DNA of 47,812 nt. Origin: a virus (taxonomy: Duplodnaviria; Heunggongvirae; Uroviricota; Caudoviricetes). Under the pieces are notes generated by a model that saw only the letters and a program-made list of their open reading frames with translations, was not told the origin of the DNA and did no database searches. A program made the translations under genes and the position numbers. The DNA lies in IMG/VR virus record IMGVR_UViG_649989947_000010, positions 1 to 47,812 of that record; one strand, 5' to 3'. Positions 8,158-47,770 of this stretch are shown here, piece after piece (position 1 is the first letter of the stretch; each line of letters starts with the position of its first letter).

Positions 8158-8174
8158 ATTGCTCTAATAAATAT
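8158..8174 (+). promoter_or_regulatory. C1 repressor operator-like site (ATTGCTCTAATAAATAT)
   Basis: 16/17 match to ATTGCTCTAATAAATTT; in divergent promoter region upstream of uhr-hrdC-dmt. Confidence 0.7.
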
Positions 8175-8245
8175 TGTTTTTTATGTCGTGTTTTCGGTAC
8201 CATTCAGCCATCGCCCTTCAATGGGCATTTGTTTGGAGTCGTCAG

Positions 8246-8530
8246 ATGCAGATGGAGCTAATAAGCCGCAAGGAGTTCGATAGCCGTGTAACCAGCGGTG
8301 AACTCGACAACTTGCAGGCTATCAAGGTGAAAGAAGGCTTTTGCCTCATTGGGAATCAGAGCGGAACAAATCGCGTTTTTATGCTTCGCCGTACGGATTT
8401 GAAGCCATTTGTCTGGAAGAACGAAATTGGTCCCAGCTCATACGCTCAAACGAGGGGGTGCCACAACCTGGCCTTTTTCTACAAAGACGAGCTTTCTGTG
8501 GTTGATATTCAAGGGTTACAACATGTTTAA
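8246..8530 (+). CDS. Small hypothetical protein upstream of hrdC
   Basis: ATG at 8246 with GGAG 8 nt upstream; overlaps hrdC start. Confidence 0.5.
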
Positions 8531-9428
8531 GCACTGGAAAAACATTACTATTTATAAACTTTCTCGTGAGGCGGATCTGACCGACTTAGAAGATAAAAAG
8601 AAAATGATCCTTTTCACGCCATGCGGTAGTCAGGATATGGCCAAGTTCGGTTTTGTATCTCCATTTGGTGATAATTCCGAAGTTATCGCTATGCATGGAA
8701 ATGGTTTTATCCTTGTTGAAGCAAAGCGCGAAACAAAAATTCTTCCCCCGCCGGTTATCCAGCGAGCTATTCAAGAAAAAATTGAAAAACTTGAGCAAGA
8801 ACAAGCGCGTAAACTGAAGAAAACAGAGAAGGACTCCCTGAAAGACGAAGTTCTGCATTCTCTTCTGCCACGGGCTTTTTCAAAGTTTTCTGTTATCCAG
8901 GCGATCTACGACGGTTCAACTAAACGTATCTATATCAATGCCAGCGCGCGGCAGGCAGAGGATATGCTCGCGCTTATGCGTAAGTCTCTGGGTTCTCTTC
9001 CTGTTGTTCCCCTGAGTGTTGAAAATCCCATTGAATTAACGCTGACCGACTGGGTACGTGATGGTAGTGCTCCACAGGGATTTCAAATGGGGGATGCGGC
9101 AGAACTTAAGGCAGTGCTTGAGGATGGCGGTATTGCCCGAGTGAAAAAGCAGGATTTGGGAAGCGATGAAATTTCCACACACCTGGAAGCTGGCAAGCTC
9201 GTTACTAAGTTGGCACTCGACTGGCAGAACCGCATTAAATTTACACTGGACCATAACTTCAGCCTTACCAGCGTCAAATTTGCGGATGAATTGCTTGAGC
9301 AGAACTCTGATATTGATAGTGAAGATGTTGCGCAGCGACTGGACGCAGATTTCTTCCTGTTGACCAGTGAAATTTCGTGCCTGGTTGATGCTCTGGTAAA
9401 TGCCCTTGGTGGAGAGGCTAAGCAGTGA
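8523..9428 (+). CDS. hrdC: RdgC-family recombination-associated protein
   Basis: Strong similarity to recalled E. coli RdgC ([11 protein letters not shown]..., [24 protein letters not shown]..., GSLPVVPLS); start chosen at MFKHW. Confidence 0.8.
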
Positions 9429-11443
9429 AAGAGCTGTGCTATGGATCTGTTTGCAGTGGAATTGAAGCCGCGAGTATTGCCTGGGAACCGTTGGGTATGC
9501 GTCCGGCGTGGTTTGCTGAAATCGAGCCTTTTCCATCTGCCGTTCTTGCGCACCGCTGGCCCCATGTCGCCAACCTTGGCGACATGACAAAACTTGCCAA
9601 AAAAGTCCTGGCTGGGGAAATCGAATCCCCTGATGTGCTCGTCGGGGGTACGCCTTGTCAGGCATTCAGTATCGCGGGCTTACGTGGTGGGCTTGATGAT
9701 GAACGCGGCGCGCTAACTTTGAAGTATGTGGAGCTTGCAAATGCAATTGACGACAAACGGTCTGAGTCCTTCCTCAAACCGACAGTTATCGTCTGGGAAA
9801 ATGTCCCAGGAGTCCTGTCATCGGCAGATAACGCCTTCGGATGTTTCCTTGCCGGATTGGCTGGAGAAGATGCGCCATTTGAACCAGGTGATCGACCTGA
9901 ATCAGGAAAAAGTAACGCGTTCTGGCGGTGGGATGGCAAAACCGGTTGCCATGCTCCAAAGTGGCCGCAGTGTGGTTGTATTTATGGATCGCAGCGAAAG
10001 GTGGCCTGGAGAATCCTTGATGCCCAATACTTCGGAGTGGCACAACGACGCCGACGCGTGTTTGTTGTCGCAAGTGCTCGAACAGACCTCGATCCCGCAA
10101 CGGTACTTTTTGAGTTCGAAGGCGTGCGCCGGAATATTGCGCCGAGCAGAGGCGAGGGGAAGGAAACTACCAGATATACTTCAAACATCGCTATCAGATC
10201 TTGCGATGATACAAACATAGTTGCCATGGCACATGGGCAAGGAGGGGCTGAGATAAAAACCGATAATTCGGCACCAACTTTGACATGTAACCATGAAGCA
10301 CCAATTGTATTGCTCGTCGACGGTAGAATGCGCCGTCTTATCCCTGTCGAATGTGAAAGGCTGCAAGGTTTTCCTGATGGACATACATTGATCCCTACGG
10401 AAAAGCGTAAAAAAGTTTCTTCAGATGAACTGGCATACCTTCGCAAAAACTATCCTGATTTGAGCGAAGAAGAGGCCGCGATGCTTGCAGCTGACGGACC
10501 GCGTTACAAAGCGATCGGCAATAGTATGGCGATACCAGTAATGCGCTGGATTGGCGATCGGATTGCCAAGGCTGCATGTCGGCAGAAGGAAGGGAGTGAA
10601 ACAAAAGAGCGAAAAGTTAAACCAGCGGCAGAATTCGAACGGTCCATATTCAAATGGGCTGGTGGAAAATTTGGTGTTCTGGAACAAATCTTTCGCTATT
10701 TGCCAGAAGGGAAGCGCCTGATTGAGCCTTTCGTTGGTGGCGGAGCTGTCTTCATGAATGCCGGATACCAGGAAAATCTGCTAAATGATGTGAATGCTGA
10801 CCTGATTAACTTTTACAAGACTCTGCAACGCGAGGCGCATTCACTTATCACTCTGGCACATCGTTTCTTCCAGGACTACAACACGCAGGAAGGATACCTG
10901 GCAGTACGGAATGCGTTTAACAAACAAGTCTATGATGATTTACATCGCGCAGCGGCGTTTTTGTTCCTGAACCGACATTGTTTTAACGGATTGACGCGTT
11001 ACAACCAAGCCGGTGAGTTCAATGTCGGTTATGGGAAGTATAAAACTCCGTATTTCCCATTGCAGGAGATGGAAGCCTTCCTTGGTGCGGAAGGGCGTTC
11101 TGAGTTTGTATGTGGTGATTTTGCTGCGGTGATTGAAGCTGCCGGAGAAGGAGATGTCATCTTTTGCGATCCGCCGTATGAACCGCTCCCAAATACAGAG
11201 GGATTCACGAACTATTCCGGTCATGACTTTAAGTTTGAAGAGCAAAAACGCCTGGCGTCTCTGTTGACGGATGCTCATCGCCGAGGTGCAAAGGTTCTCA
11301 TTACTAACAGTGGCGCGCCAAACATCAGAGAACTTTATCAGGACAGTGGCTTCAGAGTGGAACCTCTTTTTGCCAGACGTTCTGTGTCTTGTAAGGGGGA
11401 CACTCGAGGTGTTGCTCATGACGTTATAGCAATATTGCTCTAA
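9425..11443 (+). CDS. dmt: Fused DNA methyltransferase: N-terminal C5-cytosine MTase, C-terminal Dam-like N6-adenine MTase
   Basis: C5 motifs [12 protein letters not shown] and WENVPGV; C-terminal FKWAGGK and DPPY; GTG start overlaps hrdC stop. Confidence 0.85.
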
Positions 11444-11450
11444 TAAATTT
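11434..11450 (+). promoter_or_regulatory. C1 operator, perfect consensus ATTGCTCTAATAAATTT, overlapping dmt stop codon
   Basis: 17/17 match; dmt TAA (11441-11443) lies inside the operator. Confidence 0.75.
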
Positions 11451-11627
11451 ATTAGTGTAATATCGCCTCAATGAATCGTGATTTATAGAGCGATTTAGCT
11501 GTTAGCCGCGACAGGCGCGGCGGCAAGTATGGCGGGGTAGTGACTCCTTCCCCCTCATGACGCCGAGTTGCCAGGTTGACCATACGCCTAAGTGGCAACA
11601 CCGAAGTGCGTTACGAGCTTCCAGTTT

Positions 11628-11653
11628 GCCCATCTTCGGGTGGGCGTTTTTTT
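11628..11653 (+). terminator. Rho-independent terminator
   Basis: GCCCA-TCTTCGGG-TGGGC hairpin followed by GTTTTTTT. Confidence 0.6.
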
Positions 11654-12118
11654 CAGGGTTTTCGTCATGGTTAGCGACTTTGCGGCGGTTTAGAAACTGA
11701 CCATTAAAGTAAATGCAAACGATGATCTGATGATGGTAGCGGCCTAAGAAGCCAGACGCCACGGGGTATGAGTCGTCCCCCGTCAAAAAATCGACCGCAG
11801 AGTGTCCCCGTCTGTGTATTAGGGAACGGGGAGGCACAACAGGTAAGGGCGCTGGTGTGATTAACCAGATGAACGAGAAGGGGCCATCTGTTGGTCAGCG
11901 TCCTTTCCTGTTGCGTCTTCTTTTCAGCGTAACAGCGGTGCTTAACAGCACTTTGGGTACAGTTCCACGAATTTACGGGTATATCCCGTCATGCTGAAAG
12001 CGCTAATCACGCTGGAAGCCAGGGTTATGCATCCCCTGTTACCGAATTGCAGCCAGGGCGCGGTGCGCCGAAAAGCATACGGAGGTGGAAGCCCTCGCCG
12101 GAGACGTACCCGGCAAGT

Positions 12119-47102: not shown

Positions 47103-47188
47103 TGATCCTCCTCCAGAATTGACATGGCCAACAACTCACAGCGGATTACACTGGGAGTTGTTGGCCACCATTATAGAAGGATCCAACG

Positions 47189-47205
47189 AAAATAATAGAT
47201 TTATT
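47189..47205 (-). promoter_or_regulatory. C1 operator-like site between coi and c1
   Basis: Plus strand AGATTTATTAGTGCATT, 14/17 to reverse consensus. Confidence 0.5.
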
Positions 47206-47212
47206 AGTGCAT

Positions 47213-47422
47213 TTATTGTGAGTCTGGCTGGTTAGTGGCCATGAGATATTCGATTGTGTCAGTGAGATCATCCAGGTCGTCTTGGGTGATGCGGTACTCC
47301 TGATTGGATATCTTTGAGTAGTGTTCAGCAATGGCGCGGGCAGCGTCGGTTTCGGCGGGGTCTACAGATAAAGCGTTAGAGCAATGTCTAACGTCGTCGA
47401 TGGTTGGTGGAATGAAAGCCAT
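47213..47422 (-). CDS. coi: Coi, C1 inactivator
   Basis: 69-aa acidic protein directly upstream of c1; as recalled for P1 Coi. Confidence 0.8.
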   Translation of the reverse strand: MAFIPPTIDDVRHCSNALSVDPAETDAARAIAEHYSKISNQEYRITQDDLDDLTDTIEYLMATNQPDSQ

Positions 47423-47660
47423 AATTATGCCTCACTGTATTGACAACACAGAGCCTGAAGCTCTGACCTACTGTTTCACCCATGATCCATGCTGGGGTAA
47501 TCTAACAACATTGCGCTGTGTGTAAGATGAGCAATGCATAGCTGTAATGCCGTTGTATAAGGTTTCCCTGTTTGCTCATTTCCTTCTGAGCCGCTCTACA
47601 ACGCTGAAGACACATTAAATAGTGAATCCAAAGTCGTATTACGAAACGGCGGCAAAACTA

Positions 47661-47677
47661 TAATTTATTAGAGCAAT
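47661..47677 (-). promoter_or_regulatory. C1 operator (plus strand TAATTTATTAGAGCAAT)
   Basis: 16/17 to reverse consensus, upstream of coi. Confidence 0.7.
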
Positions 47678-47753
47678 TGTCAAACAACTATGAAAAACAA
47701 TCCAGTTTTTGGCTGGTGGAGTGGGATTTTTCTCTCAAAATTTATTGCTCTAA

Positions 47754-47770
47754 TAATTCTTGATTTTTAT
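47754..47770 (+). promoter_or_regulatory. C1 operator-like site (ATTGCTCTAATAATTCT)
   Basis: 15/17; same variant as the 27979 site. Confidence 0.6.

Follow-up and report, generated by a model that had tools for sequence, protein, structure and literature searches.

Probable C1 operators at gene ends and promoters of a P1-type phage-plasmid, one of them over the dmt stop codon

Background

The operators of the C1 immunity repressor of phage P1 are already known: their map is decades old, and the P1 GenBank record (AF234172.1 / NC_005856.1) annotates each of them at base level, which limits the weight as a discovery of any further set of the same kind. The consensus used here is that of the published work, which counts 22 operators per P1 genome and describes the roles of C1, Coi and Lxc (PMC8546580), and C1 operator sites are, together with Rho-independent terminators, standard features of the P1 map (PMC8201110). 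In the full-text literature, a search for the operator names Op72, Op86, Op88 and Op99 matched unrelated papers only. Here I describe the C1 sites in IMG/VR virus record IMGVR_UViG_649989947_000010, of which positions 1 to 47,812 (the whole stretch of DNA analysed, hereafter the window) hold 14 of the 22 sites reported for P1.

By megablast, the window belongs to the P1/P7 group of phage-plasmids. In a BLAST comparison with positions 55000-94800 of the P1 record it is collinear with P1 57742-94792 at 95-98% identity, a collinearity broken by window-specific segments at 3575-5835, 10146-10331, 13175-14264, 22917-25396, 31009-37890 and 38236-39862. The results below cover the sites (their occurrence, statistics, conservation and positional homology) and the occurrence of the genes c1 and coi; C1 binding and repression are taken from the annotated P1 record and the literature, and I infer that they run identically in this element.

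Results

The operator set

The motif ATTGCTCTAATAAATTT was searched in the 47.8-kb window with at most 3 mismatches, with 100 dinucleotide-preserving shuffles as the control. Eleven matches were observed against 0.19 expected, and none of the 100 shuffles reached 11. They start at 8158+, 11434+, 11445-, 21867-, 27979+, 28028-, 30120+, 42924+, 47197-, 47661- and 47744+, and the only exact copy (17/17) in the window is 11434-11450. A position weight matrix (PWM) built from the 14 P1 C1 sites gives these 11 sites scores of 19.0-26.5, above all the maxima of 20 shuffles (11.4-18.9). The P1 record (AF234172.1) carries 14 protein_bind features labelled 'phage repressor C1' between 65145 and 94740, and all 14 are present at homologous positions in the window. 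Thirteen are base-for-base identical to P1, the other (Op83) having a single substitution (C to T at position 1), and at every operator the annotated -35 and -10 hexamers are found unchanged. The sites are as follows.

Op68 (Odmt), 8158-8174, plus strand: 1 mismatch, identical to P1 65145-65161
Op72a (Obana), 11434-11450, plus strand: 17/17, identical to P1 68667-68683, where it is annotated 'controls expression of ban'
Op72b (Obanb), 11445-11461, minus strand: 2 mismatches, identical to P1 68678-68694
Op82 (O26), 21867-21883, minus strand: 2 mismatches, identical to P1 78528-78544, in the divergent control region of gene 26 and pmgL
Op83 (Oppp), 22774-22790, minus strand: 4 mismatches, PWM 15.8, 1 substitution relative to P1 79435-79451
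Op86a (OpmgRa), 27979-27995, plus strand: 3 mismatches, identical to P1 82152-82168
Op86b (OpmgRb), 28028-28044, minus strand: 3 mismatches, identical to P1 82201-82217, inverted partner of Op86a
Op88 (OpmgT), 30120-30136, plus strand: 1 mismatch, identical to P1 84293-84309
Op94 (Olpa), 42924-42940, plus strand: 3 mismatches, identical to P1 89904-89920
Op99b (Oc1b), 47186-47202, plus strand: 7 mismatches, PWM 8.0, identical to P1 94166-94182, at the c1 promoter, where it forms the weak half of bivalent Oc1ab
Op99a (Oc1a), 47197-47213, minus strand: 3 mismatches, identical to P1 94177-94193
Op99c (Oc1c), 47369-47385, minus strand: 5 mismatches, PWM 16.0, identical to P1 94349-94365, weak, inside coi
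Op99d (Oc1d), 47661-47677, minus strand: 1 mismatch, identical to P1 94641-94657
Op99e (Oc1e), 47744-47760, plus strand: 2 mismatches, identical to P1 94724-94740

The repressor itself is present. The c1 gene (46251-47102, minus strand) encodes a product identical to P1 C1.100 at 282 of 283 residues, the lone difference being residue 193. The gene for the C1 inactivator (anti-repressor), coi, lies at 47213-47422 (minus strand; coordinates mapped from the P1 coi coding sequence). The flank windows compared in coi and immC (47126-47737), which cover coi except for about 35 nt (47274-47308), are 100% identical to P1. The gene for the co-repressor Lxc/Bof, lxc, presumably lies outside the part of the genome that the window covers. 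Judging from these sequence features, the sites are very probably operators, 17 bp long, asymmetric and dispersed, at which the C1 immunity repressor of a P1-type phage-plasmid binds.

At least 11 C1 operator-like sites, one of them over the dmt stop codon (the 17/17 match Op72a), had been proposed in the initial annotation. This holds: all 11 matches map to annotated C1 features of P1, the cognate c1 and coi bear out the assignment to C1, and the check that it had suggested, a weight matrix from known C1 operators, sets them above the shuffles. Two of its coordinates were 8-10 nt off, as its site 47189 is 47197-47213 (minus strand, overlapping the weak 47186-47202 on the plus strand) and its site 47754 is 47744-47760 (plus strand). 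The weak site that it placed near 47380 inside coi is Op99c. Every site on its list is an annotated P1 operator, but 11445-11461, 22774-22790 and 47186-47202 had been missed.

No convincing new operator emerged from a PWM scan of five window-specific segments (3575-5835, 13175-14264, 22917-25396, 31009-37890 and 38236-39862); their best scores, 12.3-12.7, fall inside the shuffle maxima and are therefore not taken as sites. One further candidate was rejected. On the plus strand, 22763-22779 (CTTGAAATAATAAATTA, PWM 14.6) could form an inverted partner of Op83 with the 11-bp offset of Op72ab and Op99ab, covering the pmgM stop. P1 matches less well here, with TTA in place of TTG, and in the Cronobacter phage JK004 no site with at most 3 mismatches follows gene_101, the presumed pmgM homologue by position and length. 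This half-site is probably due to chance.

Conservation in a distant relative

A comparison of operator substitutions between the window and P1 was not retained, with 1 observed against roughly 4-8 expected by a hand estimate, a test of low power that partly reflects the immC identity. I therefore turned to a more distant P1-like phage, JK004 (MZ188976.1), whose nucleotide identity to the window is 70.7% over the lpa region (BLAST). Its 94 kb contain 10 + 5 + 3 = 18 sites with at most 3 mismatches, against about 0.2 expected, and the JK004 record carries no annotation for any of them. Positional homologues exist for Op68, Op86a, Op88, Op94, Op99a, Op99d and Op99e, preceding uhr, pmgR, pmgT, lpa, c1, coi and cre. 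These seven operators are 87% identical between the window and JK004, as opposed to 60% for the 70-nt flanks (Fisher p ~7e-10), a comparison biased by the selection of the JK004 sites on their resemblance to the consensus.

The surroundings of several operators are conserved as well. At lpa, the -35 (TTGCTA) and -10 (TATTAT) of the promoter are exactly conserved and the spacer diverges; at Op88, conservation extends over the operator, a TTG(A/T)TT element and an AT-rich -10 region. Four JK004 sites lie 1 nt past a stop codon and three overlap a stop by 1 nt.

Operators at gene ends and promoters

The initial annotation regarded several sites as standing at gene ends rather than promoters, which does not hold up, as they stand at both: the genes are so tightly packed that the next promoter or operator starts on the preceding stop codon or 1-2 nt past it. 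Op86a lies 1 nt past the pmgQ stop and contains the -35 of the predicted PpmgR. The first base of Op88 is the last base of the pap stop; this operator overlaps P2pmgT, abuts the -35 of P1pmgT and heads the cargo-bearing operon. Olpa lies 1 nt past the pdcB stop and overlaps with its 3' end the -35 of Plpa, which was also recovered by an independent, generic promoter scan. Op99a overlaps the -35 of Pc1, its first base being the last base of the coi stop, and Op83 is found 6 nt past the pmgM stop, downstream of the predicted PpmgN.

Elsewhere the operators adjoin the promoters in similar ways. Op68 is directly upstream of Pdmt (uhr-hrdC-dmt) and reaches 1 nt into its -35, TTGTTT (8174), with the -10, TACCAT, at 8198. 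Op99d exactly fills the 17-bp spacer of P1coi, between the -35 TTGACA (47683-47678) and the -10, and Op99e abuts the -35 of P4cre. At Op72a, Op86a and Op88 (for P2pmgT), the TTGCTC within the operator is itself the -35, and at Op68, Op88, Op94 and Op99e the -35 starts at the 3' end of the operator. The internal promoters that had been suggested for the tRNA-ban segment and the accessory operon are indeed annotated at these places in P1 (P1ban/P2ban, PpmgR, P1/P2pmgT and Plpa), with hexamers unchanged in the window, and were thus already known. Two of the promoters are needed in what follows.

P1ban, 11435-11463, plus strand: TTGCTC, 17-nt spacer, TAATAT (11458-11463), fully covered by Op72ab
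Plpa, promoter of the late-promoter activator gene lpa, 42938-42965, plus strand: TTGCTA, 16-nt spacer, TATTAT, annotated in P1

The operator over the dmt stop codon

The overlap of operator and stop codon is deepest at the dmt/ban junction. The dmt open reading frame (9425-11443, plus strand) ends in a TAA at 11441-11443 that forms positions 8-10 of Op72a. Together with Op72b, this operator makes up Obanab, two inverted 17-mers at an 11-bp offset (6-bp overlap; 11434-11450 on the plus and 11445-11461 on the minus strand), identical to P1 68667-68694. Positions 1-10 of Op72a read in the dmt frame as atA TTG CTC TAA, Ile-Leu-Leu-stop, so that the last 2 1/3 codons of dmt and its stop lie in the operator. 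Positions 2-7, the TTGCTC at 11435-11440, are at once the two Leu codons before the TAA and the -35 of P1ban, and Op72b extends into the -10 of this promoter. The P1 record lists it as 'sigma 70 promoter P1ban', without the flag 'predicted'.

The two codons just upstream of the operator encode IA in the window and LG in P1, but ILL-stop is kept in both. As it is kept despite the upstream change, the operator/promoter and the C-terminus of Dmt are dual-coded. By BLASTP, 613 of 757 positions are identical between the Dmt of the window and that of P1, the central segment being replaced, and both proteins end in ILL. Downstream of Op72ab lie tRNA-Asn and tRNA-Thr (12119-12272), a tRNA with a CAT anticodon (14273-14348) and, in the collinear block, the ban open reading frame (14628-15998).

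The operators of ban are arranged differently in JK004: two tandem direct C1-type sites 28 bp apart (locus L004 29881-29925) stand immediately upstream of ban, and another gene separates them from dmt. Phage D6 was considered as a further comparator and set aside, since its gene order is different: after dmt it has a terminator and a glnS in convergent orientation but lacks an operator. From these two layouts it follows that C1 control of ban is common with JK004 and that an operator over the dmt stop is peculiar to the P1/P7 lineage.

Some further features of this region were noticed. Dmt has 672 aa in the window and 754 aa in P1, a change marked by 10146-10331: approximately residues 241-302, in the middle of the C5-cytosine methyltransferase half, are a shorter, unrelated segment, and the 3' end of the gene is P7-like. 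About 165 nt past P1ban, a strong hairpin resembling an intrinsic terminator (11624-11653, plus strand; 11624-11646 including seven T) ends the 'dicF-like' leader and precedes the tRNA genes and ban. In a search of this region behind P1ban with Rfam, the small RNA DicF was not matched at the gathering score, and nothing but noise came up with E values up to 1 allowed. The stretch 11506-11603 shares ~81% identity with sequence that bears no annotation in many lambdoid and Stx phages. In the C1-controlled ban operon, the segment 13175-14264 carries in place of P1 tciA-tciC a gene for a 275-aa SPFH/Band 7 protein (13418-14245).

Insertions and variable cargo

The pmgN gene is interrupted by a copy of IS10 (1329 bp, 22918-24246) with a match to RNA-OUT (22963-23032, minus strand) and an open reading frame for a transposase of 402 aa (23025-24233). 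The last 1150 bp of this IS10 are repeated in tandem behind it (24247-25396), a partial copy that could be real or an assembly artefact, and the whole (22918-25396) is flanked by a 9-bp target duplication, GACCCTGTA.

Between Op88 and pmgT lies a small open reading frame (30219-30305, plus strand) with a GGAG ribosome-binding site, which encodes a hydrophobic peptide of 28 aa, MNTAFKIIMAAIYFWLFSITFGGIVAHG, and would be the first gene of the operon controlled by Op88. No coding sequence is annotated there in AF234172.1, and the N-terminal segment is conserved in JK004. Just upstream, a hairpin at 30169-30191 is kept in JK004 with a different sequence. Inside or behind pmgT there is a mosaic of about 6.9 kb (31009-37890, and 38236-39862), with pmgT-like sequence on both sides of the insertion. 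It encodes two Ead/Ea22-like proteins and a DUF551 (EaA-like) protein and shows patchy matches of 94-98% to P7, SJ46 and Stx/lambdoid phages; as it lies downstream of Op88, this cargo is placed under C1 control.

At the other end of the window, the P1 incA-repA segment is swapped out at 3575-5835, where an open reading frame (4744-5628, minus strand) encodes a Rep3-type initiator with only weak Pfam matches. The replicon differs from that of P1, with parAB and the oriR-proximal part retained.

Discussion

If the sites act as in P1, C1 bound to each of them would occlude a sigma-70 promoter in the prophage (plasmid) state, aided by the co-repressor Lxc/Bof and undone by Coi or Ant. The early operons silenced in this way would be uhr-hrdC-dmt, the ban operon with its tRNAs, pmgL onward, pmgN-ppp-pmgQ, pmgR-pmgS-pap, pmgT with the variable cargo, and lpa, whose product activates all late promoters, and both coi and c1 would be autoregulated through their own C1 operators.

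Besides the selection bias in the JK004 comparison, several observations weigh against this reading. Three of the sites are too weak on their sequence alone: Op99b scores inside the range of the shuffles, and Op83 and Op99c near its upper edge (Op99c beats the best score of 18 of the 20 shuffles), so that all three are counted as operators only because of their positional homology to annotated P1 operators. IS10, 127 bp downstream of Op83, probably uncouples this operator from most of its operon (pmgO-ppp-pmgQ). PpmgR, P1/P2pmgT, PpmgN, P1/P2pmgL and P2ban carry only the label 'predicted' in the P1 record, and the -10 of PpmgR (TAAAAC) is poor and not kept in JK004.

Alternatively, gene-end operators may serve mainly or additionally to halt RNA polymerase coming in from the preceding gene, instead of occluding a local promoter. 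Such a second, undescribed job as C1-dependent roadblocks comes into question for some of them, Olpa and Op86a/b, and I consider it unlikely. At Olpa, polymerases from phd-doc-pdcAB would be kept from reaching lpa, the master activator of the late genes. The genes humD, phd, doc, pdcA, pdcB and lpa (40604-42940) are co-oriented and tightly packed, with doc, pdcA and pdcB overlapping or nearly touching. No intrinsic terminator was predicted from phd-doc-pdcAB to Olpa by a simple scan, which is crude and blind to Rho-dependent termination; C1 at Olpa, 1 nt past the pdcB stop, could therefore also block read-through into lpa. The phd-doc addiction module is expressed in the lysogen. The lack of a predicted terminator before Olpa raises the question of what prevents read-through from the addiction operon into lpa in lysogens.

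At Op86, C1 could influence whether transcription terminates or reads through from the ppp operon to the pmgR operon. The inverted operators Op86a and Op86b enclose a terminator-like hairpin (28004-28033, plus strand; AAAACGTGATG / CATCACGTTTT and a T6 run), and the fold of the RNA from 27970-28060 has a dG of -26.9 kcal/mol (z = -6.25). The order Op86a-hairpin-Op86b is kept in P1-like contigs of IMG/VR and in JK004, with different stems: ACGTGATG/CATCACGT, ACATGGTG/CACCATGT and GCATGGTG/CGCCATG. Among these IMG/VR variants and JK004, two stem pairs are compensated by changes on both sides, and 96.8% of the cells are paired. The T tract of the hairpin is the 3' end of Op86b, which accounts for the odd AAAAAA at the 3' end of this operator. 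No annotated terminator was found at the Op86 stretch among the features under the match in the matching records of the phages collection. Op83 and Op99c, which the P1 record places after the PpmgN -10 and inside coi, are a further candidate, as they lie downstream of their promoters; this placement and the weak -10 of PpmgR also speak for roadblocks.

However, a roadblock would be redundant at Op72, Op86 and Op88, as the operons upstream are themselves repressed by C1 via Op68, Op83 and Op86, and Plpa and P1ban, which lie on operators, are listed as sigma-70 promoters without the label 'predicted' borne by the others, Plpa being phylogenetically conserved in addition. The terminator scan, for its part, cannot detect Rho-dependent termination. 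The control of read-through by C1, as suggested in the initial annotation, is thus not needed at Op72, Op86 and Op88 and may be a secondary role at Olpa or Op86a/b; if this is true, a classic system would gain one more, modest level of mechanism.

That the matches are chance AT-rich words or dispersed copies of a repeat or mobile element and not protein-binding sites, to which the AT-rich motif and the three weak sites might lend some colour, is already refuted by statistics and positional homology: no shuffle reached the observed count, the flanks of the copies are unrelated except for short promoter elements, the 18 copies in JK004 often stand at homologous junctions despite the divergence of the two sequences, and the sites coincide with annotated P1 operators.

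With the sites read as C1 operators, three points are of use. The P1-type immunity circuit is kept intact in this element, which has wild-type C1 and every one of the region's 14 operators; C1 control extends to the variable cargo behind Op72 and Op88; and the regulon, with its layout hugging the stop codons, persists in a relative from Cronobacter whose aligned flanks are only ~60% identical.

Compared with P1, the consensus, the 14 positions, the strands, the bivalent geometry with an 11-bp offset at Op72ab and Op99ab and the associated promoters are common to both. The differences are the substitution in Op83, the IS10 with its partial tandem copy inside pmgN, and the cargo of two operons, with an SPFH protein behind Op72 where P1 has TciA, and a lambdoid mosaic of the 'ea' type behind Op88. 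P7 (AF503408.1), in which 'phage repressor C1' sites are annotated at the dam(dmt)/ban junction, the Op86 pair and lpa, is closest to the window at the dmt 3' end and the Op72 region (97.8%); the rest of the window is a P1/P7 mosaic, with a replication initiator region unlike that of P1. In phage lambda, the immunity repressor CI, with OR and OL, likewise blocks early promoters and is autoregulated. The operators of lambda are symmetric sites for a dimer and form clusters at two loci, unlike the C1 sites of P1, which are asymmetric, recognized by a monomer and dispersed over more than 10 operons, with further layers of control by a co-repressor (Lxc) and anti-repressors (Coi, Ant).

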